Assembly: GCA_045124505.1 (NCBI GenBank)
Contig: JBGVLZ010000039.1
Location: 23,110-87,109, forward strand
DNA length: 64,000 bases
Source of the DNA: Eubacteriales bacterium
Lineage (GTDB): Bacteria; Bacillota; Clostridia; Oscillospirales; CAG-272
Direction of reading: 5' to 3'
Shown here: positions 4,805 to 64,000 of the stretch, one piece after another
How positions within the stretch are numbered: the first letter of the stretch is position 1
Layout: each line of letters begins with the position of its first letter
Made by a program: the position numbers and the translations under genes
Notes under the pieces: generated by a model
Database searches by the model: none
What the model was told of the DNA's origin: nothing
Seen by the model: the letters and a program-made list of their open reading frames with translations, nothing else

Positions 4805-7800
4805 CAGCCTTCTCCTCCTTCTGTGTATGTGTGGAAGCCGAGAGCTTCGATTTCAACACCGTCAACGGAAACTTTGAAGTTGTTGTAGTTAAGTATAAAT
4901 ACCTTACCGCCTTCATAAGTTACCTTTACGATCTTACCGTTGTCGATAAGATTTTCCGCTGCGATCTGCTCTTCGATGGAAAGCTCTTCATCGTCTTCAT
5001 CATCTTCTTCAGCGTCTTCTTCGGGAACATCCTCAACGGGAGCATCTGTTTCAGTTGAATCGCTGTCTACGGGTGCATCGGAATCAACAGGAGCTTCGGA
5101 ATCAGCAGGAACTTCGGAATCGGCAGGAATTTCCGTTTCGGGAATTTCTGTTTCTTCCTTCTTGGATTCTTCTTCTGCACGAAGCTTATCTGCAACTGCC
5201 TGCTGATATTCTTCTTCAGTAAGAACACGTACACCTGTGATAAACTCGTGATCGATAATGAGCTTATCCTGAACATCCTTTATAGCGCCGTTAAGCTTAT
5301 GATAGCTTTCAGCAAGACCTTCAAGCCATGTATCGAAGTTTACAGAATAGTACTTCTGAAGTGTTACGTCTTCCTTCAGTTTGTTCGTGTTCTGATAGCA
5401 AAGCACGAAATACATTGAAGAACCGTTTTCAATCGACTTCAAAAGCTCGTAGTCAAGGTCGCCTGCCATATTGAGAGCAGAACCTGTAAAGTTTACATAT
5501 CCATGAAGAACCATACCCATGAAAGGTATTGCATTACTTGACTTCAGATATTGGCTGGAATCAAGCGGTATATCAAGAATGTAATCTGTATACGGAAGAA
5601 CAAAGGAGTTACCGCCGCTTACCATTACTTTACCGAAATCATTCTGCATCTTTGCAAGCACATCTCTTACAAATTCCTTGCTGTCTTCTCTGTTGTAAGG
5701 ATCGTCCTCGTTAAAGTCTGAGTTAAGATTCGAACCAAGAGTTGAAACAGAAATGCCTGTGGGCTTTGTTTCAAGAAGATCCTTTGACATCTTGTCATAG
5801 AAATATTCAAAAACAGAAGGAGAAATGGGGTTGAAGCCCGTCTTGTAGAATTCCTGGTATGCAGGGTTATATTCACGCTGTGACGGATATCTGCCGTCCA
5901 TTGTCTGAACTGCGTGCTTCTTGTAGTTGAAGCCGTCAAAGAGCGAAACGCTCTGCAAATACGAGAACTCGAATTCAGGATATACACCGATATCCTTTTC
6001 TTCAGCGAATGTCATAAGATCCTTGAATCCGTCTGCACCGCCTACTTTCTTTTCCCACTTAACTTTGTTGGGAACTGTAGATGTAACACCGCCGTTTGCA
6101 TAGCCTGTGAGCTTGAAATTGATATTTGTGATATCCTTTTCAGCCAACATTCCGTACATTGTTTTAACATCATCAAATGTTGTAAGCGGTACTTTTACTT
6201 CTACGGGAATACTCAAAATCTTGTCAGTAGACTTGATAACACCCATTGTTTCGATACAAAGGGGAATATCATCTTTTATGTCTTCAGCTGTGAGTCTTGT
6301 AATAATTCCTTCGCTTTCAAGGTAATCTCTGCAGACATTTACCATACCCATATAAGATGCGGGATAATACTTATAATTATCAACCTTAACATCGGGAATA
6401 AAGAGTGATGATGTGTCAACATTTCCTTCAGCATCGGGAACGAGATTTGAAATGAGGTTCTCTCTGTAACCTTCGGGATCTGCAAGGTAAGCGTTATAAT
6501 CAGCTGCCTTCGCTTCATCTGTAAGCATTGTGTATCTGATTATGTAGCTGCCTGTGTATCTACGCTTGGATGTAACTGTCCACATCGCATTTGCGCCGAC
6601 ACTTGTTGCATCAGCAAGGTTATACGAGTCTGTAGGACGGGGATAGAACGATGTTGCAACAGAGCTGTAATCGTGGAGAACACCGCCGTGGTTTGTAGAA
6701 ATCTCAGCAAGTGCGTCACCTTCAAGAAGGATCGCAAAATATCCTCTGTCTTCCTCGTATGTGGAAGTTTCTGTAACAGACTTTGTGCTGATGAGGTTTC
6801 CGTATGCGTCGATATATTCCATATCTTCGGGATATTCGCCGTCTTTCATTGTGTGAGCGACTTTTCCGTCCTTATCATAGAATACACCGTTTTCGGGGTA
6901 TACGTTAAACCAGCCTTTGTCAGCATTTTCGGAAATATATCTTGTTATTTCCATGCCGTCAGCATAGTAGTACTTGCTGAGCGGAACATTTACTCTGTAT
7001 GTGTTAGATTCGACATAATTTTCAACTACACCGAATACGGGCAAACGCATGGGCTGACGGTGCTGAGGATCATCGGTATGGTATGCAAAGTCCGAACCGT
7101 ACATCTTCGCACTGAGTGAAAGCTGTGTATTAACGTCTTCAAATCTTGTAAGTGTACCGCTTCCGTCAGGAATAAACGTATAACCTTCGTTATCCTTACT
7201 GTTACCTGCACCGAAATAAGGCAGGATAGTAAGCTTCTTCAGCTTATAGTTTGCTTCGTTGAAGCGGATACCGTTTGCCGCAAGTCTTGCGGTAAGTCCC
7301 TGTTCGTCAAGCGTATATTCGATAGAAAGACGGAACAAGGGGGGAGCTGTGTCTGTAACACTGTACTCAACGAGATCGTGGTCTTCGTCAAGCTTTTCGT
7401 ATGTGTATTCAGGGCAGTATTTTTTGATCTGCTCTTCGATCCAGTTGAACTCTCTGTCCTTTGTATCGTTGGAAAGTACGTAGATAGCATACTTCTTTGT
7501 GATAGGCCACTGGTTATACATCGCATTAAGTGTTGTCTGTGTAACACCTGCCGCTGTGGGGTCTTTAAGCAAGTAGTAAGCTGTGAACTTATTCAAAAGC
7601 CAGTTGGAAACACCTGCTTCTTTAAGCTTTGCGATAATGTTTGTCTCAAAGCTTTCCTTTGTGATCTGACGCGGAACAAGCTTTCTTGTTTCTGTACGTC
7701 CGATCGCATACTCAACTCTCAAACCGTTCTGAATATTCTTAACGATTATCTGATCGCGGAGAGCCGCTTCCTTGTAGCTGTAATATGTCTGGTTTTTCGA

Positions 7801-51073: not shown

Positions 51074-51775
51074 ATGGCTGAATTACAGTATTCAAATGAA
51101 GTACAGCATATGTGTAAGGTCGCTAAAGGCCCCCACCACGGTCCTGCTCCCATTCCCGAAGAAGGCAAATGGGTAAAGGTTTATGAGATCAAGGATATTT
51201 CCGGTCTTTCCCACGGTATCGGCTGGTGCGCTCCTCAGCAGGGTACATGTAAGCTTACACTTAATGTAAAAGAAGGTATCATTGAAGAAGCTCTCGTTGA
51301 AACACTCGGTTGCTCCGGTATGACACACTCCGCAGCTATGGCTGCTGAAATCCTCCAGGGCAAGACACTTCTCGAAGCTCTTAATACTGACCTTGTTTGC
51401 GATGCTATCAACGTTGCTATGCGTGAGATCTTCAAGCAGCTCGTTTACGGTAGATCACAGACAGCTTTCTCCGAAAACGGTCTTCCCGTTGGTGCTTCTC
51501 TCGAAGACCTCGGTAAGGGTCTGCGTTCACAGGTAGGTACGATCTTCGCTACAAAGGAAAAGGGTGTTCGTTACCTTGAAATGGCAGAAGGTTATATACT
51601 TTCCCTCGCACTTGACGCAAATGACGAAGTTTGCGGATACAAGTTCGTTCACCTCGGCAAGATGATGGAAGCTATATCCAACGGTACAGATGCTGCTGAA
51701 GCTTATGAAAAGAACATCAAGACTTACGGCAGATACGACGGTGCGGCTAAATACATCAACCCCAGAAAGCAGTAA
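51074..51775 (+). CDS. NifU/IscU-N-like Fe-S scaffold-domain protein with a ~100-aa C-terminal extension
   Basis: Three Cys in IscU-like context: GIGWCAPQQGTCKL...LGCSGMTHSAAMAAE. Confidence 0.65.
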   Translation: MAELQYSNEVQHMCKVAKGPHHGPAPIPEEGKWVKVYEIKDISGLSHGIGWCAPQQGTCKLTLNVKEGIIEEALVETLGCSGMTHSAAMAAEILQGKTLLEALNTDLVCDAINVAMREIFKQLVYGRSQTAFSENGLPVGASLEDLGKGLRSQVGTIFATKEKGVRYLEMAEGYILSLALDANDEVCGYKFVHLGKMMEAISNGTDAAEAYEKNIKTYGRYDGAAKYINPRKQ

Positions 51776-51789
51776 TGGAGGGCAGACAA

Positions 51790-52788
51790 ATGATAAGATT
51801 TGAAGGATATGAAAGAAGAATCGCCGGAATCGAAGCTTGCATGGCTGAATACGGCATTAAGGATCTTGAAGAAGCAAGAGATATCTGCCTTGCAAAGGGT
51901 ATCAATGTTGAAGATATCGTTAAAGGCGTTCAGCCCATCGCATTTGAAAACGCTGTTTGGGCTTATACACTCGGTTGCGCTGTTGCAATCAAAAAGGGAG
52001 TAAAAAATGCTGCTGATGCCGCTGAAGCTATCGGTATCGGTCTTCAGGCATTCTGCATCCCCGGCTCTGTTGCCGCTAACCGTAAGGTTGGTCTCGGCCA
52101 CGGTAACCTCGGCGCAATGCTTCTGCGCGAAGAAACAAAGTGCTTCTGCTTCTTGGCAGGTCACGAATCATTTGCGGCTGCTGAAGGTGCTATCGGTATC
52201 GCAAGAAGTGCAAACAAGGTAAGAAAAGAACCCCTCCAGGTTATTCTTAACGGTCTTGGCAAGGATGCCGCTTATATCATCTCCAGAATCAACGGCTTCA
52301 CATACGTTGAAACTGATTATGATTTCTACTCTGACGAGCTTACAGTTAAGCGCACTATCGCTTATTCCGACGGCGAACGCTCCAAGGTAAGATGCTACGG
52401 CGCTAACGACGTTCTCGAAGGCGTTGCAATCATGAAGAAGGAAGCTGTTGACGTTTCCATCACAGGTAACTCAACTAACCCCACAAGATTCCAGCACCTC
52501 GTTGCAGGCACATACAAGAAGTGGGCTATCGAAAACGATAAGAAGTACTTCTCCGTTGCATCAGGCGGCGGTACAGGCAGAACACTTCACCCCGATAACA
52601 TGGCTGCAGGTCCTGCTTCCTACGGTCTTACAGACTCTATGGGACGTATGCACGGCGATGCGCAGTTCGCAGGTTCTTCCTCCGTTCCCGCACACGTTGA
52701 AATGATGGGTCTCATCGGCGCAGGTAACAACCCCATGGTTGGTATGACAGTTGCTTGTGCTGTTGCTATCGAAGAAGCAAGCAAATAA
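51790..52788 (+). CDS. uncharacterised GGGtGRT-motif protein
   Basis: SGGGTGRTLHPDNMAAGPASYG motif. Start set to MIRFEGY (GGAGGG SD, 7-nt spacing). The family name is recalled from NCBI annotation and has no known function. Confidence 0.6.
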   Translation: MIRFEGYERRIAGIEACMAEYGIKDLEEARDICLAKGINVEDIVKGVQPIAFENAVWAYTLGCAVAIKKGVKNAADAAEAIGIGLQAFCIPGSVAANRKVGLGHGNLGAMLLREETKCFCFLAGHESFAAAEGAIGIARSANKVRKEPLQVILNGLGKDAAYIISRINGFTYVETDYDFYSDELTVKRTIAYSDGERSKVRCYGANDVLEGVAIMKKEAVDVSITGNSTNPTRFQHLVAGTYKKWAIENDKKYFSVASGGGTGRTLHPDNMAAGPASYGLTDSMGRMHGDAQFAGSSSVPAHVEMMGLIGAGNNPMVGMTVACAVAIEEASK

Positions 52789-52999: not shown

Positions 53000-53890
53000 A
53001 TGGTTATTTCAACTGCAATTTCCATTATACGTGACCGTTTCGGAAACAAAAAGGCGATAAAAATGTTATCGGATGCGGGATTTAAAACGCTTGACTGTTC
53101 CCTTTTCGAAATGGCTTATTATGACAGCCCTTTCAACTCAGAAAATTGGGAAAAAGAAGCACGAGAGCTGAAGGCATATTCAGACTCACTCGGAATTACG
53201 TTCAATCAGGCGCATTTACCTTTCAATTTCAAGTGGAACGAGGAGGGCGAATGGGAGCGTTTCATCGGCCCTGCGCATTACAGAGCACTTGAGATCTGCG
53301 GAATTATGGGTGTAAAATACGTTGTTGCGCACCCTATACATCACATGGAATATCTCGGTCACGAAGAAGAAGTATATGAATACAATATGCGCTTTTTCCG
53401 CACGATGATACCTTACTGCGAGAAGTACGGATACAAGATATGTATTGAAAACATGTGGCAGTTCGAAGCGAAAACAAGACGACTCGGACACGATTCCTGC
53501 TCGCACATGGAAGAACTCATTCGTTATATCGACGGTCTTGGCGGAACGGAGCATTTTGCGGCTTGTCTTGACCTCGGTCACACAACGATCGTCGGCTTTG
53601 AGCCGCAGGATTGCATACGAAAGCTCGGTCATGAGTATCTGTATGCTCTCCACGTTCACGATAACGATTATATGAGCGACAGGCACGACCTGCCAGGTCA
53701 AGGAAAAATAGACTGGGAAGAGGTCTGCCGTGCGCTCGGTGAAATAGATTACGTCGGCGACTTTACATACGAATCAAGTAATTTCCAAAGACACGTTCCT
53801 GAGGATATGCTCCCCATATCGTTTAAATATATGCTCGACGTTGCTAAGCATCTTACAAACAAAATCGACAGCTACAGACCGAAAAAATAA
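53000..53890 (+). CDS. sugar phosphate isomerase/epimerase (xylose-isomerase-like TIM barrel)
   Basis: AP_endonuc_2-like metal motifs (VVAHP, ICIENM, LDLGH, LHVHDN). Confidence 0.8.
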   Translation: MVISTAISIIRDRFGNKKAIKMLSDAGFKTLDCSLFEMAYYDSPFNSENWEKEARELKAYSDSLGITFNQAHLPFNFKWNEEGEWERFIGPAHYRALEICGIMGVKYVVAHPIHHMEYLGHEEEVYEYNMRFFRTMIPYCEKYGYKICIENMWQFEAKTRRLGHDSCSHMEELIRYIDGLGGTEHFAACLDLGHTTIVGFEPQDCIRKLGHEYLYALHVHDNDYMSDRHDLPGQGKIDWEEVCRALGEIDYVGDFTYESSNFQRHVPEDMLPISFKYMLDVAKHLTNKIDSYRPKK

Positions 53891-54339: not shown

Positions 54340-57324
54340 ATGCTTGAGCTTAAGAAAATAAAAAAGGACTATCCCGTTGGTGACGGTGTAGTTCATGCTC
54401 TTAAGGGTGTCAATCTGTGCTTCGGCAAAAGCGAGTTTGTTTCGATACTCGGTCCGTCCGGATGCGGTAAAACAACGCTTTTGAACATCATCGGCGGACT
54501 TGACGGATACACAGACGGCGACCTTATTATAAACGGAAGGTCAACAAAGGATTACAAGGACAGAGATTGGGACACCTACCGTAACCACTCAATAGGCTTT
54601 GTTTTTCAAAGCTACAACTTAATTCCGCACCAGTCTGTTTTACAGAACGTAGAGCTTGCTCTGTCGCTTTCCGGTGTCAGCAAATCTGAAAGACGTCAAA
54701 GGGCAAAAGATGCTTTAAAGCTCGTCGGGCTTGAATCGCAGTACAACAAAAAACCGGGTGAGATGTCAGGCGGTCAGATGCAGCGTGTGGCAATTGCAAG
54801 AGCCATTGTCAACAATCCCGACATAATTCTCGCTGACGAGCCGACGGGTGCGCTTGACACAGAAACAAGTCTTCAGGTAATGGAGATATTGAAAGAAATA
54901 TCAAAAGAACGTCTTGTTATAATGGTAACGCACAACCCTGAGCTTGCGGAAAAATATTCAACACGTATTATCCGTATGCTTGACGGTGAAATTATGGGCG
55001 ACTCCATGCCTGCAGAGCCTGAGCCCATACTTCCAAGCACAAACAAAGCCAAAAAAGAGAAAAAGCCTTCAATGTCATTCGCAACATCTTTTTCCCTTTC
55101 ACTGAAAAACCTTTTTACAAAAAAAGGAAGAACACTCCTTACATCATTTGCGGGAAGTATCGGTATTATCGGAATTGCTGTTATCCTTGCCATTTCGCAG
55201 GGTATGACCGCATATATTGACACGGTGCAGGAAGACACCCTTTCGTCTTATCCGCTTATGCTTGAAGCAAAACACATGGATTTAGGTACTATTCTTGAAA
55301 CATTTGCAGGAACAGCACAGTCCATAGAAAAGCACGATAACGATGCAGTGTATCAAAAGGCGATGATGTATGACCTGCTTAACGCTTTGAACAATATGGA
55401 AGAGTCCGAAAATGACCTCGCATCATTCAAAAAATATATTGAGGAAGAAAAAAGCAACGAAGAAAGCAAGCTGTACACATCGCTCAGCGGTGTGCAGTAT
55501 TCCTACGGACTTGACATGCTGATCTACACAAAAAGTGCTGACGGCGATATAATCCGTTCCGATTCTAACACAATAATGCAGGACCTCATGGTCGAGCTGT
55601 TCGGCATGGATATGTCAAACATGATGGGAATGTCATCATCGGGCGGCGGACTTATGTCTATGTCTCCCGGTGCAAGCATGTCAAATGTCACGATGTGGCA
55701 GGAAATGCTCCCCGGTGAAAACGGCAAACCTGTAAGTGAGCTTCTTGAAAAGCAATATGACGTTGTATACGGAAGCTGGCCTGACGAATACAACGAGGTC
55801 GTGCTCGTACTTGATGCATTCAATGAGCTTGATGACTTTACGCTCTATGCACTCGGTCTTAAACCGAAGTCCGACATAGATGCAATAATGGATTCGGTAA
55901 TAAACGGCACAGAGATCAATATAGAAAGCCGCAAATGGACATATGAAGAAATATGCTCCATGGAATACAAAACGATACTTAATTCAGACTGTTTCAAATA
56001 CGATGAAGCAACAAAAACTTACGTAGACCTCAGAGATACGGATACAGGCTTAAAATATCTGTACGACAACGGTGTAGCCCTTAAAGTTTCGGGTATTATC
56101 AAGCCTGCAGAAAAAGCAGTATCAACAATGCTTACAGGTTCCATAGGTTACACACATCTGCTTACAAAGCACATCGTGGAGCAGTCGGAAAAATCCGTCG
56201 CTATATCAACTCAGCTTCAAAACCCTACAATCGATATTTTCACGAATCTTCCCTTCAAGACCTCGTCCGGCAGTTTAACAGACGAAGTAAAAGAAAAGGA
56301 ATTCAGAGAATATATCAAATCGCTCGATGTAAATGAAAAGGCACAGGCATATATTGCAATCAAATCTATACCGAGCGATGAATTCATAGAAGCCGCCCTT
56401 GAGCAGGCACTTGGAATGATGACACCCGACGATATGAGAGAAGCACTTTCGCAGGCTTTCTCACAGCAGATGGGAATGGGCGGTATAGATATCGAACAGT
56501 ATCTTTCATTGATGTCCGATGAAGACATCAGCGAATATTTTGCGGAAATGATGAAAGAACAGCTTAAAATGAACTACGCTTCGGAAACCGCATCACGTCT
56601 TTCGCAAATGACGCCCGATCAGCTTGCAGCAGCACTCGACGGCGAATCTGCCGAATATACAACAGAAATGTGCGTGCTTTACTACGATGCGGTTTTGGAA
56701 TTTTCAAAGGCATCGTATGAAGAAAACCTCAAGAAGCTCGGCTATGTAGACCTTGAAAAGCCCTCTGCAATAAACCTTTATGCGGCTTCGTTCAACGATA
56801 AGGATATCATTGAAGAAGTGATTCAGTCATACAATGACGGAGTTGATGAGCTTTCAAAAATCAACTACACTGACTACGTCGGACTTCTTATGTCATCAGT
56901 CACAACGATAATTGACGCAATTGCATATGTGCTTATATCATTCGTTGCGGTATCACTTGTTGTATCGTCAATTATGATAGGTGTAATAACGCTTATATCA
57001 GTTCAGGAAAGAACGAAAGAGATCGGTATTTTGCGTGCCCTCGGCGCATCGAAAAAGAACGTTTCAAGAATGTTCAATGCTGAAACGATGATAATAGGCT
57101 TCACTTCAGGACTTTTAGGTGTGCTTATCACATACCTGCTTTGCATACCGATAGATATGATAATGCAGCATGTCAGCGGTATCAAGAGTCTTGAAACAGA
57201 ATTCCCGATACTTGCGGCAGTGTTCCTCGTTGTAATAAGTGTTGTATTTACGCTTGTTGCAGGTATCATACCTTCAAGAAGTGCGGCAAAAAAAGATCCT
57301 GTAGTCGCTTTGAGAACAGAATAA
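54340..57324 (+). CDS. fused ABC ATPase / FtsX-type permease (MacB-like) with a ~560-aa extracytoplasmic domain
   Basis: Start set to MLELKKIKKDY. Walker A GPSGCGKTT, signature LSGGQMQR, Walker B ILADEPT. One TM, a long extracellular region, then three C-terminal FtsX TM helices. Confidence 0.85.
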   Translation: MLELKKIKKDYPVGDGVVHALKGVNLCFGKSEFVSILGPSGCGKTTLLNIIGGLDGYTDGDLIINGRSTKDYKDRDWDTYRNHSIGFVFQSYNLIPHQSVLQNVELALSLSGVSKSERRQRAKDALKLVGLESQYNKKPGEMSGGQMQRVAIARAIVNNPDIILADEPTGALDTETSLQVMEILKEISKERLVIMVTHNPELAEKYSTRIIRMLDGEIMGDSMPAEPEPILPSTNKAKKEKKPSMSFATSFSLSLKNLFTKKGRTLLTSFAGSIGIIGIAVILAISQGMTAYIDTVQEDTLSSYPLMLEAKHMDLGTILETFAGTAQSIEKHDNDAVYQKAMMYDLLNALNNMEESENDLASFKKYIEEEKSNEESKLYTSLSGVQYSYGLDMLIYTKSADGDIIRSDSNTIMQDLMVELFGMDMSNMMGMSSSGGGLMSMSPGASMSNVTMWQEMLPGENGKPVSELLEKQYDVVYGSWPDEYNEVVLVLDAFNELDDFTLYALGLKPKSDIDAIMDSVINGTEINIESRKWTYEEICSMEYKTILNSDCFKYDEATKTYVDLRDTDTGLKYLYDNGVALKVSGIIKPAEKAVSTMLTGSIGYTHLLTKHIVEQSEKSVAISTQLQNPTIDIFTNLPFKTSSGSLTDEVKEKEFREYIKSLDVNEKAQAYIAIKSIPSDEFIEAALEQALGMMTPDDMREALSQAFSQQMGMGGIDIEQYLSLMSDEDISEYFAEMMKEQLKMNYASETASRLSQMTPDQLAAALDGESAEYTTEMCVLYYDAVLEFSKASYEENLKKLGYVDLEKPSAINLYAASFNDKDIIEEVIQSYNDGVDELSKINYTDYVGLLMSSVTTIIDAIAYVLISFVAVSLVVSSIMIGVITLISVQERTKEIGILRALGASKKNVSRMFNAETMIIGFTSGLLGVLITYLLCIPIDMIMQHVSGIKSLETEFPILAAVFLVVISVVFTLVAGIIPSRSAAKKDPVVALRTE

Positions 57325-57341
57325 TTACAATTCAAATTATA

Positions 57342-57386
57342 AAAAAACGGATACTCTTTACTTAAAGTATTGAGTATCCGTTTTAA
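57342..57386. terminator. bidirectional terminator between convergent genes
   Basis: AAAACGGATACTC...GAGTATCCGTTTT. Confidence 0.8.
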
Positions 57387-59507
57387 TTATACAAATCTTT
57401 GTGCATAACCGCACCGTCGGCAAAGCTCCTCCGAAGCTTTACCGCATTTAAAGCTTTCGACCATATTTACAGCTCTTTTGGAATTAAGAATGGCTGTTAT
57501 ATCATCGGTAAATATATTGCCGAGGTGTATGACACCGTCACTGTCAAGACAGCACGGCACTACAGTTCCGTCACAAAGAATACCGAATTGATCTTTCAGT
57601 CCGTAACAGAAAAACTTGTCGCCTTTGATGTCTGCATTGATATCAGGCCACTCAAAACGCTCACCCCATTCAAGATAGATCTTATCCCGTATCTTTACGC
57701 CGCGGGTGTTTTCTTTCCATTCGCCGGATATATTTTCTTTGAGCAGCTGCAGCGATATATCATTTTTGCCATCGTCACACCCCTTGTTCCAAAGGCGGAA
57801 AACAACGATAGTTCCCTGTTCTGCCGCAGCTTTTGCAAACTCCGCAAGCTCATATACATACCTTTTATGAGCATCTTCAGTTCCGTTTTCAAAACTGTGC
57901 AAGGATATATTCACTTTATGTAAGCCTGCTTTTAAAAGCTCTTTTTTCCGCTTATTCAAAAGCGTGCCGTTTGTGGTTATGATCGACTTAAAGCCTCTTT
58001 TCCCTGCTGTTTTAATGAATTCTGGAAGCAGAGGATGTGTCAGCGGCTCTCCCATCAAATGATAATAAATATATTCCGTCTGTCCTTTTAATTTGTCAAG
58101 AACAAGGGTAAACTCGTTAATACTCATTTGCCTTTTTTCCCTCTTGTGTCCGTGACAAAACGAACAGCTCATATTACATATATTGGTAATTTCTATATAT
58201 ACCTTTCTGTACACGTTTTCCTCTTTGTTATTTATTCGCCTTTGTCGCACGGGAATTTTTGTATCGCACAAGGTGTAACGCTCACCGCCGAGGATATCGA
58301 CCGGTATATCAAAGCTTCTCAGCTGTTCGGCAAAAGCATTAACGTAAAGATCTCCTTTTCCGCTTTGCATAAAGTTTATTGTAAAATCCTCACCTATAGT
58401 CATAACCTCGATGAGAAGCATGTCTTTGGTATTCTTTTCGCCGATATACGCATGGAGATCCTCAACATATTTATCAAGTCCGCACCAATCCATCTTGCCG
58501 ACATAGCTTATTCCGAATGTTTTTCCGCGGATACTGTCCTCAACGTATTGCCGCATAAGCCGTTCTTTTTCTTCAAGACTCGTTTCGTCACCGTCAGGGA
58601 AAACGGTCAGCAAACGGTTTACCGCATTCAGATCCGCCTCTTTTTCGCTTCCGAGGATCACTTGACCTCTTATCACGGTATTCTGCCGTTCAACGTGCCA
58701 TTCCTTTGCTTTTGCGGAAAGCGTTACGGGAATGTAGCTTACCAAGCTGTGTCGGTTAACAGGTGCTTTCAATGCTGAACGGTATTGATGCTGCACGTGC
58801 CCGACTATCGGCTGATCTATACCGTCATCAAGCAAACAAAGCGCACGGTACAGCATTACAGATAAAAACGAGACCGGGCTTCCGTCTGAGGGATTCGCCT
58901 TCGCCATCATGGCTTTTTGCGGAATGTGCAGATGATATGCGTAAAGTCCTTCACTGTCAAATTCATTCGGATTTAAGCTGTATGGTACGCATGACGTCTT
59001 TTTCATAGGCAGTAATGAATCGATCTCTACAGGCTTATCAAAAAAAGGATATTCATATTCTTCTTTCATAACGGGATCGCTCGGCATATTGATCCTATCA
59101 CAGCTCAATCCATCCGCACCGTACAGCTCTGACACATAAAGATACAGGACCGTTTTCAACAACGGATCGATGCCCATGCCGTCGGCTATATAATGGCTGG
59201 CGTGCAGAAATATCTTTTTTTCTTCACATCCGAATGCAAGCAAATGTCCGCAGCTTTCCTCTGTGCCAAGAACCACACAGCGTCCGTCATTGAATACAGG
59301 CACAGGTCTTTCGTTGTGTGTAAGAATTATACTGTTTCCGCATTTTTCGGGATATACGCTGAAATAAGGATACCGTTTCATAGCCTTTGCAACGGCACGG
59401 CAAAGCGTTTCATGCTCGACACAATACCGCATGGTAATGGCAAGCTTGAAGCTGCTGAAAAAATCTTCGTTAGCGCCGTATAAAAGCGGATTGGGTTTAA
59501 AATTCAT
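57387..59507 (-). CDS. fusion protein: N-terminal HxxxDG acyltransferase/condensation-like domain + C-terminal radical-SAM/SPASM domain
   Basis: HASHYIADGMG near residue 105. CNMSCSFC (CX3CX2C) near residue 445. SPASM-type Cys clusters CYGLKDQFGILCDGTVVPCC and CRRCGY. One uninterrupted 706-codon frame. Confidence 0.7.
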   Translation of the reverse strand: MNFKPNPLLYGANEDFFSSFKLAITMRYCVEHETLCRAVAKAMKRYPYFSVYPEKCGNSIILTHNERPVPVFNDGRCVVLGTEESCGHLLAFGCEEKKIFLHASHYIADGMGIDPLLKTVLYLYVSELYGADGLSCDRINMPSDPVMKEEYEYPFFDKPVEIDSLLPMKKTSCVPYSLNPNEFDSEGLYAYHLHIPQKAMMAKANPSDGSPVSFLSVMLYRALCLLDDGIDQPIVGHVQHQYRSALKAPVNRHSLVSYIPVTLSAKAKEWHVERQNTVIRGQVILGSEKEADLNAVNRLLTVFPDGDETSLEEKERLMRQYVEDSIRGKTFGISYVGKMDWCGLDKYVEDLHAYIGEKNTKDMLLIEVMTIGEDFTINFMQSGKGDLYVNAFAEQLRSFDIPVDILGGERYTLCDTKIPVRQRRINNKEENVYRKVYIEITNICNMSCSFCHGHKREKRQMSINEFTLVLDKLKGQTEYIYYHLMGEPLTHPLLPEFIKTAGKRGFKSIITTNGTLLNKRKKELLKAGLHKVNISLHSFENGTEDAHKRYVYELAEFAKAAAEQGTIVVFRLWNKGCDDGKNDISLQLLKENISGEWKENTRGVKIRDKIYLEWGERFEWPDINADIKGDKFFCYGLKDQFGILCDGTVVPCCLDSDGVIHLGNIFTDDITAILNSKRAVNMVESFKCGKASEELCRRCGYAQRFV

Positions 59508-59589
59508 AAAAAACTCCGTTTGTATTATTGTTCATCCGTCTATTTCGTATTTCAAATCACTATTGAAATACAGCTTTCGTTCACCGCTC

Positions 59590-59618
59590 ATTATAACATA
59601 AATGCATTGTTTTTGCAA
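59590..59618 (-). promoter_or_regulatory. promoter of the fusion gene
   Basis: Minus strand TTGCAA-17 nt-TATAAT; ~85-nt leader containing the ATTTCAA/TTGAAAT hairpin. Confidence 0.55.
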
Positions 59619-59862
59619 GTGATTTATTAAGGCTATCATTTAGCTGATCGTGATATATCATTTTTCAGCCGTTTTCTTGTTAAGCTTCTTAATTCAACTG
59701 TAAAGGTGTTGCGCCCTTTCCATTCGGACCGTACACTCGGTTTGTTCTGTTTTTACCAATCCAAGATTATTACAAATATGAAGTAATTTCTTGTTTGATA
59801 TATTTATCAATCCGTTTTAACGCTTCTTCCGCATCAAACTCATAGAAGGGAGCAGAGTGGTT

Positions 59863-61165: not shown

Positions 61166-61495
61166 TTACTCAATATCCACACCCAAATATGACAGTTCTC
61201 GCATCAGTTCCCACTCTTCAGCCGCCGGTGCGATTTCAAAGAAAATCTCGTTAGTGAATTTTGCTTTGTCTGCTACGGGATACGGGAAATAGTCAAACTG
61301 TACGGATGCGTGGATTTTACCGCTATACTCATATTTGCCGAGCAAGAGATTTAACAGTGTTGTTTTTCCTCTGCCGTTTCTTCCTACAAAGCCAAGTTTC
61401 CAATCTGTATCAATTTGAAAATTGATATTTTCAAAGATATTGTCGTAGCTGGTGTGGTAGGAAAATGTAAGGTTTTCTATTTTTATCATTGACAT
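61166..61495 (-). pseudogene. N-terminal fragment (109 codons) of an ABC-F ribosomal-protection-type ATPase (Lsa-like)
   Basis: MSMIKIENLTFSY...GFVGRNGRGKTTLLNLL Walker A. The frame ends after GVDIE and no ABC-F-like coding continues downstream; full-length proteins are about 490-550 aa. Confidence 0.7.
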
Positions 61496-61905
61496 ATATA
61501 AAATTCTCCTTTGTATGTTGTAGTTGATACAAAGTCGGTGTCACGGTGACAATTTACTCCGTATGAGTCCCACCGGACTACACCGACATCACACGGAGAA
61601 AAATATGTGTAACAACCATTTCTGCGGTATTCATCACAGATTTCACTTCCTTTCACAAAAAAATAAGAGCCGCAAGAAAGTCGATTCTTGCAGCTCGTCA
61701 TAGCATAATTACACCACCATACAAAGTGGCAAAAGCACTATATAGAGATAAAGAGACTTATAACTTTCTTGCAATAGGTGCAACAATACCATCAAAAATG
61801 GCACTATCGCATATTCCGATTTTATTTGCAAGAAAAGTTAATCATCTTTCCACCTCTTTAATTTTAATTTATTCGTATTATATCACAAAACACAGAGAAA
61901 TGCAA
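61496..61905 (-). promoter_or_regulatory. promoter plus leader-peptide transcription attenuator of the ABC-F gene
   Basis: TTGCAT-17-TGaTATAAT (61877-61905). Four alternative pairing segments: TTTTCTTGCAA (61826-61836), ATTGCAAGAAAG (61764-61775), GCTGCAAGAA (61685-61694), TTTCTTGCGGC (61669-61679), then a U-run (61657-61668). Confidence 0.7.
61822..61845 (-). CDS. 7-codon leader peptide MINFSCK
   Basis: AGAGGTGGA SD, 3-4 nt spacing, ATG..TAA. Its 3' half forms segment 1 of the attenuator. Confidence 0.55.
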   Translation of the reverse strand: MINFSCK

Positions 61906-61921
61906 TATATAGATTATTATA

Positions 61922-61995
61922 AAACGGCGGCAAGGAGATAATTCACTCCCTGCCGCCGTTAACATTATGCGAATATCAATTTTGCTTATTGACAA
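61922..61995 (-). repeat. orphan copy of the tnpV 3' end plus its terminator hairpin
   Basis: About 85% identical by eye to 62826-62896, including the sequence TTATGCGAATATCAATT. Confidence 0.7.
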
Positions 61996-62373
61996 TTATC
62001 TCGTCAACCTTTCAAGTGCCTCATCCTGCGTAGCAACAAAGAACACATCCTTGCCTTTATTACTCTCGTAAATAAAATCCTTCAGCGGCTTGCTTGTATA
62101 GTGAGAATAATCTCCGAAGATGGCGAGTTTTGCTTGATAGGTGATGAATTTTTCGAGCATCTCGCCCGCAAGACCTCGACTAAGGATAAAGAAGTCATCG
62201 GCTACGGCACTTTTTTCAATGGCAATCAGATTTGTGCCTACCTCATATTTAGCGGTCATAATGAGGTCAAGTGCCGATTGCACATCGGTCAATACTTTTT
62301 CAGCTCCCGTGATCACGGCAACCGTTTTTTCATTTCTTATAAATTTCTCAACATTCATTTTCTGTTTCTCCAT
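61996..62373 (-). CDS. DUF4180-domain protein
   Basis: 125 aa; resemblance to DUF4180 by recollection (LAIFGDYSHYTSKPLKDFIYESN). Confidence 0.55.
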   Translation of the reverse strand: MEKQKMNVEKFIRNEKTVAVITGAEKVLTDVQSALDLIMTAKYEVGTNLIAIEKSAVADDFFILSRGLAGEMLEKFITYQAKLAIFGDYSHYTSKPLKDFIYESNKGKDVFFVATQDEALERLTR

Positions 62374-62752
62374 TTGTTATTTCACGATTGGCAGTTTCCT
62401 CCTGCAATATCCTGCGAACCGCCTCTTTCAATTTTGCATTAGCCGACGATGACGGATCAAAGCACATCGAAAGAAACGATGATAATTGCGTGTCCTCTAA
62501 CGGCTTCGGCTGAGCATCGTACAACTGTCCATGCGGCTCGTCACATCTTCCGAAAATATAATCCAACGATACATTGAAAAAATCCGCATACTTCATCAAC
62601 ACACCGTAAGGCGGAAAGGATTGAGCGTTTTCATAGCGAAAGATGGCAGGCTGATCTAAATCAAAAACAGCCGCAAGCCTTGCTTGTGAGACGTGTATCC
62701 CTTCTCTCAGCTCGGTCAATCTATGTGCAACAATGGCAGGTTTCTTTTCCAT
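62348..62752 (-). CDS. XRE-family helix-turn-helix transcriptional regulator
   Basis: N-terminal HTH (LTELREGIHVSQARLAAVFDLDQPAIFRYENAQ). Confidence 0.8.
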   Translation of the reverse strand: MEKKPAIVAHRLTELREGIHVSQARLAAVFDLDQPAIFRYENAQSFPPYGVLMKYADFFNVSLDYIFGRCDEPHGQLYDAQPKPLEDTQLSSFLSMCFDPSSSANAKLKEAVRRILQEETANREITNGETENEC

Positions 62753-62825
62753 AATATTCTCCCATAATCGTGATAATATAAATATTATATACGAAATTTA
62801 TATTATTGTCAATACGCATAATGAA

Positions 62826-62896
62826 TTAACGGCAGGGATTTTTATCTCCCTGCCGCCGCTGACGTTATGCGAATATCAATTCTGCATTTACAATTT
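62826..62896 (-). repeat. tnpV 3' end plus terminator hairpin (parent copy of the 61922-61995 repeat)
   Basis: CGGCAGGGA-TTTTTAT-CTCCCTGCCG hairpin directly after the tnpV stop. Confidence 0.7.
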
Positions 62897-63242
62897 CTGT
62901 GGCTCTGCTGCGGATATTATTCATACGACCAACCCACTCCATTTGATTATCCGCTTTGAGTTTTTCCGTCACTCCCTCACGCTCTGCCATCTGTTTTACG
63001 AGCCGAAAAAACATATCCTCAGCCTGCTTGTCGATCTCGGTAAGGTGGTCATTGAGTTTTCCGGTGGTGAGCAAATTGGTGTATAAAACCTTCCGGTTTT
63101 GCTTTAGATACCGTAAATGCCGCTGCCCCCATAAGCCGATTTCGGTTTCTTTTTCGGGTGGTAATTGCAGATCGGGCAGATAATAATCGCCTTGCAAAGT
63201 GTAGCGGATGCCGGTTCTTTCGTCTGTGAAATGCTGTTTCAT
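62865..63242 (-). CDS. tnpV: TnpV transposon-associated protein
   Basis: MKQHFTDERTGIRYTLQGDYYLPDL...GLWGQRHLRYLKQ, typical TnpV sequence. Confidence 0.8.
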   Translation of the reverse strand: MKQHFTDERTGIRYTLQGDYYLPDLQLPPEKETEIGLWGQRHLRYLKQNRKVLYTNLLTTGKLNDHLTEIDKQAEDMFFRLVKQMAEREGVTEKLKADNQMEWVGRMNNIRSRATEIVNAELIFA

Positions 63243-63252
63243 TGTGTGTTCC

Positions 63253-64000
63253 TACCTTTCATAATTTCTATTTTTTGAGCGTTGCCCACGCTCTTGGGGT
63301 TGATTTTTGGGTGCAGGAATCGGCTCATACATAATGCTCTTTTCCTGCTTTTTGAAGCGTTCAAGAATACCGTCTATAAATTCCTTAACCGCTTTCGGAG
63401 CTGCTTTTAATGCTTCAAGGTATGGGCGGCACTTCTCAGTCAGCTCAGATAACGCTTCCTTCAGCCGAGAAACTTCCGACTGTAACGACCATATTTGCCG
63501 TTACAAATATCGGTTTTGGTCTTGCAATTTTCGCACCTCGGACTCTGCCGAGTAGCTACGCTTCGCAAGAGAAGTCAGCTTCTGATAGTCCTCTGCCGAC
63601 ACGGTGTATTTTCCCGTGAGAGATTTTTTGCCGGAATTGTCTATCTCCATAAAAGTCATTGAAGCGGTTTTCTTGTCATCATAACGCACCTGCACATCGG
63701 CAATTTTCTCTTGCAGATCGGACAGCCGCTTTTGATCCTGCTTAATTTTGTGTTCAAGCGAGGTGAGATTTTCAGCGGTGCTGCCACGCTCTCCACGGCT
63801 AAAACCGTTAAAGCCTGCACTCTGCATATGCTCATAAAATTTGTCTTGCAGAACACTGTAGGAAGCGTGATAAACTTGTTTCCCTTTGCTGTTGAGAATG
63901 GGATTTCCGTCTTCGTCAAGTGCTTTTTCGGAACGCCATTTCTTTGAATGGCTTACTTGATGAATGACCTCTTTGACCGTTCCCACAAGTTCGGGGCTCT
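63253..64000 (-). pseudogene. MobV/Pre-type relaxase, C-terminal part, interrupted by an in-frame TAA; N-terminus lies outside the window
   Basis: The reading frame gives ...RKLQDQNRYL-TAA(63501-63503)-RQIWSLQSEVSRLKEAL...RSKNRNYER-TAG(63253-63255), in the same frame on both sides of the stop. Confidence 0.7.

Follow-up and report, generated by a model that had tools for sequence, protein, structure and literature searches.

Does an open reading frame (ORF) that joins an acyltransferase to a radical S-adenosylmethionine (SAM) enzyme encode a purpose-built enzyme with two functions, or have two genes simply run together? The question is raised by a gene of 706 codons, referred to here as the fused gene, in a 64,000-nucleotide (nt) stretch of the genome of an Eubacteriales bacterium (assembly GCA_045124505.1, contig JBGVLZ010000039.1, positions 23,110 to 87,109), the whole of which is referred to here as the window. 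An earlier note, made from the sequence alone, had proposed a bifunctional tailoring enzyme that combines radical chemistry with acylation. This proposal is not supported here, because the halves are encoded by separate genes in all relatives examined, are joined through a single codon and belong to unlinked families, and because the radical SAM half keeps its own Shine–Dalgarno (SD) sequence and start codon. With a probability of about 0.72, the 706-amino-acid (aa) frame is a lineage-specific read-through fusion, by loss of a stop codon, of two adjacent and otherwise independent genes, the downstream one of which is probably still translated by itself.

The frame described in the earlier note is present, and the motifs quoted from it were all found within it: HASHYIADGMG at residues 102–112, CNMSCSFC at residues 444–451, and GEPLTHP, CYGLKDQFGILCDGTVVPCC and CRRCGY. 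Its parts are the following.

57387–59507, minus strand: fused gene, one uninterrupted ORF of 706 codons (stop codon TAA at 57387–57389)
58248–59507, minus strand: residues 1–420, a complete copy of a normally standalone condensation/BAHD-like acyltransferase of ~420 aa (homologs, AlphaFold2 (AF2) model, Foldseek)
59178–59195, minus strand: HxxxDG motif, H105-Y-I-A-D109-G110 (family alignments)
58245–58247, minus strand: CGA (Arg421), where the ancestral stop of the acyltransferase gene stood (alignment to genomes G005 and G008 and to the family)
58215–58247, minus strand: linker of 11 codons, RQRRINNKEEN, a translated former intergenic spacer (alignment to G005)
58212–58223, minus strand: retained ribosome-binding site GAGG (58223–58220), 5-nt spacer and GTG start (58214–58212) of the 275-aa radical SAM gene (sequence)
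57390–58214, minus strand: residues 432–706, the whole of a 275-aa radical SAM enzyme of the SPASM/twitch type that is normally a protein by itself (Pfam, homologs, AF2 model)
58155–58178, minus strand: CxxxCxxC radical SAM cluster motif (C444, C448 and C451), invariant in family alignments
57411–57608, minus strand: auxiliary-cluster cysteine region (family alignments; SPASM Pfam match at residues 634–699)

A stop codon probably lost at the junction

Separating the two halves is the 11-codon linker, which is missing from all standalone members of the acyltransferase family. In G005, a genome of the same genus, residues 322–706 are matched and the match is interrupted by a single in-frame TGA. 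At base level, the G005 junction reads TGC GAT ACG AAA ATA CCC GTT TGA, 21 nt, GTG TAT AAA, and that of the window reads TGC GAT ACA AAA ATT CCC GTG CGA, 30 nt, GTG TAC AGA, with the frame shared between them; the linker aligns with the 21-nt spacer of G005 with an in-frame indel of 9 nt. The standalone acyltransferase of G008 ends CDTKV-TAG, aligned family members end CDTKIP(x), and G008 and all standalone acyltransferases stop at, or within one or two codons of, the position of Arg421. The TGA of G005 and the ends of G008 and the family at the same position therefore give two genes as the ancestral state. Selenocysteine insertion or other recoding at the G005 TGA is ruled out, as family members all terminate there, with various stop codons. 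Among the 11 genomes of the genus, the junction is open in one, that of the window.

The spacer is a multiple of three and free of in-frame stops in both the window and G005, so that one substitution is enough to produce the fusion. Downstream of it, standalone radical SAM homologs begin exactly at the internal in-frame GTG (residue 432). As GAGG stands 5 nt ahead of this GTG, the C-terminal half amounts to a complete gene with translation signals of its own.

The acyltransferase gene and the 275-aa radical SAM gene would have come to adjoin each other in a shared ancestor of this species and G005, head to tail and in the same frame, with a TGA stop and a short spacer between them. A change of TGA to CGA in the present genome would then let ribosomes that start at the acyltransferase ATG cross the 30-nt spacer into the radical SAM gene, yielding the 706-aa fusion. 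The free 275-aa enzyme is probably also made, by internal initiation, as the GAGG-N5-GTG site is kept. With both halves intact and no family-invariant residue lost, each is probably still active in its own right: acyl transfer by way of His105 for the N-terminal half and, for the C-terminal half, SAM-dependent radical chemistry by which, as with BtrN and BlsE, a small molecule is likely to be oxidised or rearranged.

Loss of a stop codon between adjacent genes on the same strand is a textbook single-step route to gene fusion, and the present junction bears the same hallmarks: a stop turned into a sense codon, a spacer turned into a linker, and the SD sequence and start of the downstream gene kept. 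As one base change joins genes that are separate everywhere else, the fusion is most likely a recent accident, not a designed enzyme with two functions, and is best read as recent and as presumably neutral or mildly tolerated.

Weighing the stop-loss reading

Two points weigh against this reading. First, support for the CGA comes from assembly consensus, and the second assembly that carries it, a Logan contig, may share the sample of the genome. Second, the acyltransferase and radical SAM genes are adjacent in two species, G000 (this genome) and G005, in which the genes downstream differ (a MacB-like gene in G000, a TetR gene and a cation-efflux gene in G005), and the pair might thus be a maintained two-gene module with a functional link.

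Bearing on the first point is Logan contig SRR25030041_5829, which encodes an identical 706-aa product with the same neighbours and matches the window without a difference (100%) across 6116 bp, CGA included. Because this second assembly carries the identical frame, an assembler-specific artefact is unlikely. The earlier note had held that its interpretation would fall if the halves were separate genes in the true sequence; they are separate in all relatives examined, and in this genome both assemblies are open at the junction. Also unlikely is that the open frame of this metagenome-assembled genome reflects an error in the consensus or a variant of a minority strain, with TGA and two genes as the true state. 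Such an error would be in keeping with a draft of 124 contigs with 5.8% estimated contamination, in which one base separates CGA from a stop, and many other database 'fusions' of this radical SAM enzyme are chimeric or over-called ORFs. An exact scan of metagenome contigs of the Joint Genome Institute (JGI) with the junction pattern, the critical base left free, gave no match, and so no second sample with the junction of this species. Against an error or variant stand the base-for-base agreement of the genome and Logan contigs over 6.1 kb, the rarity of substitution errors in short-read consensus, and a site without homopolymer or repeat.

On the second point, elsewhere the two families are found apart. 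The acyltransferase family has a scattered distribution and was found in 7 of the 401 genomes of the order, and a radical SAM gene adjoins the acyltransferase gene at 1 of 28 other loci, that of G005. Three genomes that are 93–100% complete have the acyltransferase without the 275-aa radical SAM enzyme, and in two further genomes the two lie on different contigs. The closest radical SAM genes (84–90% identical; G009, G007, G002, G004, L007, L008 and L010) all lie behind other genes; in relatives, the gene ahead is usually one for a ~395-aa HTH_3 protein, overlapping by 11 nt, and otherwise a 217-aa ORF. The HTH_3 protein was tested as a diverged homolog of the N-terminal half and is unrelated to it.

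In these same seven genomes and loci, DNA homology to the window starts 5–14 nt before the radical SAM start. Collinearity between G004 and the window runs from the MacB-like gene up to and including the radical SAM gene, with homology ending 11 nt upstream of the GTG, and in G004, too, the MacB-type exporter gene is convergent with a standalone radical SAM gene (85% DNA identity). The arrangement of radical SAM and exporter genes therefore existed before the acyltransferase gene arrived. Taken as families, the acyltransferases and the radical SAM enzymes are mostly not functionally linked.

No conserved family of acyltransferase–radical SAM fusions was found, the listed matches to the N-terminal half including no homolog of ~700 aa. 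Length-matched proteins with a radical SAM domain carry unrelated extensions, mostly singletons, and none is fused to an acyltransferase. Among the papers searched, none brings fusion together with radical SAM, SPASM and condensation domain.

Several database 'fusions' within the radical SAM family (P0125, P0127 and P0139) are artefacts, with unrelated genes joined on in the middle of the radical SAM domain. One artefact partner has Pfam domains of the GTPase/translation-factor type (IF2-like by eye), and the N-terminal extension of one artefact resembles translated non-coding DNA. Artefactual fusions of this kind are a caution for domain-architecture mining in metagenomic protein sets.

An adaptive fusion, in which acyltransferase and radical SAM enzyme share a small-molecule substrate in this genus and channel an intermediate within a truly bifunctional protein, is improbable. 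It would account for the side-by-side, in-frame placement of the pair in two species with different chromosomal contexts, and for the retention of all invariant residues in both halves. The substrates of the closest structures of the radical SAM half are small molecules, which natural-product pathways often acylate, and N-terminal extensions are structurally tolerated on SPASM enzymes, as in maturases that contain a recognition element (RRE) for peptides that are ribosomally synthesized and modified after translation (RiPPs). However, the fusion is confined to one species, its linker is unmodified intergenic sequence that still holds an SD sequence, and the families are unlinked at 27 of the 28 other loci, with acyltransferases lacking the radical SAM enzyme in complete genomes. 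Elsewhere the radical SAM gene follows many unrelated genes, and no biosynthetic cluster surrounding the fused gene was found among the window neighbours.

Adjacency in two species and fusion in one could also be taken as a 'Rosetta stone' signal that the radical SAM enzyme and the acyltransferase share a small-molecule pathway, for example one in which a sugar-like metabolite is oxidised or rearranged by radical chemistry and then acylated. This, too, is doubtful; if true, it would be the first functional clue for a radical SAM family of thousands.

A free-standing family with an acyltransferase fold, missed by sequence models

Preceding the linker is a protein that sequence comparison leaves unnamed. 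Residues 1–431 have no match in Pfam (even at E ≤ 10), NCBIfam or PDB sequences (phmmer), and none of the curated sequence models (Pfam Condensation, Transferase and WES_acyltransf; NCBIfam) recognises the acyltransferase half, whose fold was identified only through structure comparison. A search with the whole protein gave 656 homologs, the best 120 of which are all 417–437 aa long; their alignments, at no more than 73% identity, reach across just the first 59% of the query. Searched exhaustively by HMMER, the N-terminal half gave 603 representative clusters, nearly all of standalone proteins of 415–435 aa, and among the best 150 of these 603 was neither a radical SAM domain nor an acyltransferase–radical SAM fusion. 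M1 of the fused gene aligns with M1 of the family.

The AF2 model of the N-terminal half, built from 20 sequences, has a predicted local distance difference test score (pLDDT) of 88.2 and a predicted template modelling score (pTM) of 0.89. Compared with the PDB by Foldseek, it gave 249 matches at E ≤ 0.001; the best 50 of the 249 are all BAHD enzymes, condensation (C) domains of non-ribosomal peptide synthetases (NRPS) or related acyltransferases (TRI101, PapA5), with a probability of 1.00, and the top matches are full-length (E of 6e-16 to 1e-13, template modelling (TM) scores of 0.5–0.63). Shared with the BAHD enzymes (HCT), NRPS C domains, TRI101 and PapA5 are the two-lobed fold, an HxxxDG motif at the equivalent position and a similar size (~420 aa); sequence identity to them is 9–14%, and the present family, unlike these, goes unrecognised by Pfam and NCBIfam. 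The acyltransferase call of the earlier note is borne out by the fold and by the conserved motif, and its own counter-case, an N-terminal domain without the acyltransferase fold, does not hold.

The HxxxDG motif follows a strand (residues 98–104) and precedes a helix (residues 110–129) in the AF2 model. Among close relatives of the acyltransferase half, SHYIxDGMG is invariant; in 72 distant relatives the His is kept in 70, the Asp in 62 and the Gly in 63. PF00668 touches 1 of the 72 (E 0.0016), and the family profile, run against PDB sequences, reached only a condensation-domain protein at E 0.04, in the motif region. The setting of an NRPS condensation domain was not found: no peptidyl carrier protein, adenylation or ketosynthase domains occur among the window neighbours or at the loci of 3 + 23 relatives. 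The family also differs from NRPS C domains in being free-standing, with no carrier-protein, adenylation or polyketide synthase/NRPS genes nearby. On the evidence of its predicted structure, the N-terminal half is a free-standing member of the superfamily of chloramphenicol acetyltransferase (CAT), condensation and BAHD enzymes that curated sequence models have missed.

At 23 species loci, the neighbours of the acyltransferase gene that recur, each at 5 loci, are of generic kinds (regulators of the XRE type and ABC ATPases) or a 202-aa ORF of no assigned family, and no informative recurrent neighbour was found across the 23. An ORF of ~200 aa lies directly beside the standalone acyltransferase gene at 5 of these loci (L031, L036, L042 (about 5214–5843), L041 and L049), and is the sole mildly recurrent, non-generic neighbour of the family.

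A compact radical SAM enzyme resembling BtrN

Following the linker is an enzyme that Pfam recognises twice, as Radical_SAM (PF04055; residues 438–568, 59.3 bits against a gathering cutoff of 29.5) and as SPASM (PF13186; residues 634–699, 47.2 bits against 21.5). Together with structure comparison, these matches uphold the earlier call of a radical SAM domain with an extension of the SPASM/twitch type. A search with residues 432–706 gave at least 8000 homologs; all 120 of those listed are standalone and nearly all are exactly 275 aa long, with 95–100% coverage of the fragment and up to 87% identity, and the G009 copy is 90% identical. The AF2 model of this half (pLDDT of 86.8) was matched by Foldseek first to BtrN (PDB 4m7t, E 2.8e-12) and next to BlsE (PDB 7vob), then to SuiB, MoaA, AbmM, DesII and SpeY.

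Seven C-terminal cysteines had been counted in the earlier note. Just five of them are invariant in the family alignments (C634, C652, C653, C696 and C699, corresponding to C203, C221, C222, C265 and C268 of the standalone enzyme), and C645 and C688 are variable. The cysteine block of SPASM domains is CX2CX5CX3C; here, the pattern is C-x10-C-x7-CC-x34-C-x7-C-x2-C, and that block is absent. By definition, a SPASM domain holds two auxiliary clusters (PMC9012708), and the five invariant cysteines of the family would be too few for two auxiliary [4Fe-4S] clusters. They are compatible with the one cluster of a twitch domain; the best structural match is BtrN, and MoaA and SpeY are matched as well.

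BtrN, a 2-deoxy-scyllo-inosamine dehydrogenase and twitch radical SAM enzyme, has one auxiliary [4Fe-4S] cluster bound through four cysteines, and oxidises a small molecule (PMC9012708). The C-terminal half matches it with a TM score of 0.71 (normalised to BtrN) and resembles it in being compact (275 aa, compared with ~250 aa), with a CxxxCxxC motif near the N terminus and a short C-terminal extension that bears cysteines. It differs from BtrN in sequence (~20% identity), in passing the Pfam SPASM threshold, in its five invariant C-terminal cysteines (seven in this copy) and in the absence of an aminoglycoside gene cluster near the fused gene. BlsE, a cytosylglucuronate decarboxylase, is the second structural match and the best PDB sequence match; like AbmM and DesII, it is a sugar-modifying radical SAM enzyme with a non-peptide substrate. 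Identity is low (17–18%), and the fused gene, in contrast, lacks a surrounding nucleoside or sugar antibiotic cluster.

Judged by its model and alignments, the C-terminal half fits a twitch-like small-molecule enzyme better than a peptide maturase with two auxiliary clusters. With BtrN and BlsE as the nearest of the solved structures, the substrate may plausibly be something other than a peptide. Of the two substrates that the earlier note had entertained, the non-peptide one is thus retained; the other, a RiPP precursor encoded elsewhere in the genome, is weakened by low model scores and the lack of an RRE. That the half is a RiPP maturase, a matter of its function and not of the origin of the fusion, is very improbable. 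The Pfam SPASM match would suit a maturase, as would partial, weak NCBIfam matches to maturases of sactipeptides and ranthipeptides. All NCBIfam matches, those to the equivalog models AlbA, PapB, SkfB and StsB included, fall far short of their cutoffs, however, and cover the N-terminal core only; no RRE-type Pfam domain was found, and 275 aa leave no room for one. Also at odds with a maturase are the best structural matches (BtrN and BlsE), the number of invariant auxiliary cysteines (five), the lack of a precursor-like ORF nearby, and neighbours that across genomes are variable and not of the RiPP type.

In several relatives are truncated second copies of the 5′ part of the radical SAM gene (about 103–143 aa, 84–88% identical to that of the window), at L010:4187-4498, G007:C213:5881-6216 and G002:C1:233248-233562. 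These partial duplications lie about 1.5–2 kb upstream of the full-length gene, beside genes resembling those for extracytoplasmic function (ECF) sigma and anti-sigma factors.

Flanking signals and genes

Bordering the fused gene are the following features.

59590–59618, minus strand: promoter-like TTGCAA-17(TG)-TATAAT preceding the fused gene (no more than a consensus match, 10 of 12)
59514–59517, minus strand: ribosome-binding site GGAG, 6 nt ahead of the ATG (59507) (sequence)
57347–57381, no strand assigned: hairpin ACGGATACTC...GAGTATCCGT with an A-run and a T-run at its sides, located between the convergent stop codons (sequence)
54340–57324, plus strand: MacB-type ABC ATPase/FtsX exporter, convergent with the fused gene and in a separate operon (Pfam, NCBIfam)

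The promoter proposed in the earlier note is present as a site, TTGCAA-17-TATAAT with a TG extension; it is a consensus match, and the region holds 9 promoter-like sites, compared with 6.5 ± 2.3 in shuffled sequences. The ~85-nt leader, which had been called structured, is no more so than shuffled sequence: it folds with a minimum free energy of −11.6 kcal/mol (z = −1.05), a value that 36 of 200 shuffles equal, and it has no match in Rfam. As the earlier note had it, the flank at 59508–59862 contains no cysteine-rich small ORF, and coding-like fragments are visible there, in a remnant reading ...YEFDAEEALKRIDKYIKQEITSYL up to a stop. The remnant (~25 codons, 59770–59845, minus strand; ...YEFDAEEALKRIDKYIKQEITSYL with two stops in succession) directly follows the stop of a DUF4304 gene, within the 355-nt spacer upstream of the fused gene, and is probably the relic of a lost gene.

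Downstream, the hairpin between the convergent genes is a probable bidirectional terminator, as predicted from its sequence; it was left uncalled by the terminator scan because its loop exceeds 8 nt. The convergent MacB-type exporter of the earlier note is confirmed by ABC_tran and FtsX matches, and is 1038 aa long if counted from the first ATG, or 994 aa if M45 is taken as the start. It has a very large extracytoplasmic domain of ~560 aa, and L021:3-1436 is grouped with its gene. Further along the plus strand are a gene for a GGGtGRT-family protein (51775–52788; PF14057, E 1e-192) and, next after it, one for a xylose-isomerase-like TIM-barrel protein (53000–53890).

About 1.7 kb from the fused gene is a low-GC stretch (61166–63998; GC of 0.356 at 60–62 kb) with apparent mobile-element remnants: a truncated ABC ATPase fragment of 109 aa, DUF4180, an XRE helix-turn-helix protein and TnpV. 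An open-ended ORF at the window edge has no Pfam match and is suspected to be a relaxase fragment.

Implications

A two-domain enzyme of exotic appearance can stem from the loss of a single stop codon by one base change, and such a protein alone is no basis for inferring coupled chemistry. The novelty of the fusion itself is low; the remaining interest lies in its two components. The first belongs to a family of ~600 clusters of free-standing HxxxDG acyltransferases with a condensation/BAHD fold, from Clostridia of the herbivore gut, that is invisible to Pfam and NCBIfam. The second, the 275-aa radical SAM enzyme of the twitch/SPASM type, is a very common orphan of gut Clostridia, repeatedly co-transcribed behind unrelated genes. 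Should the fusion prove functional, it would provide a first handle on the substrate of this orphan enzyme.

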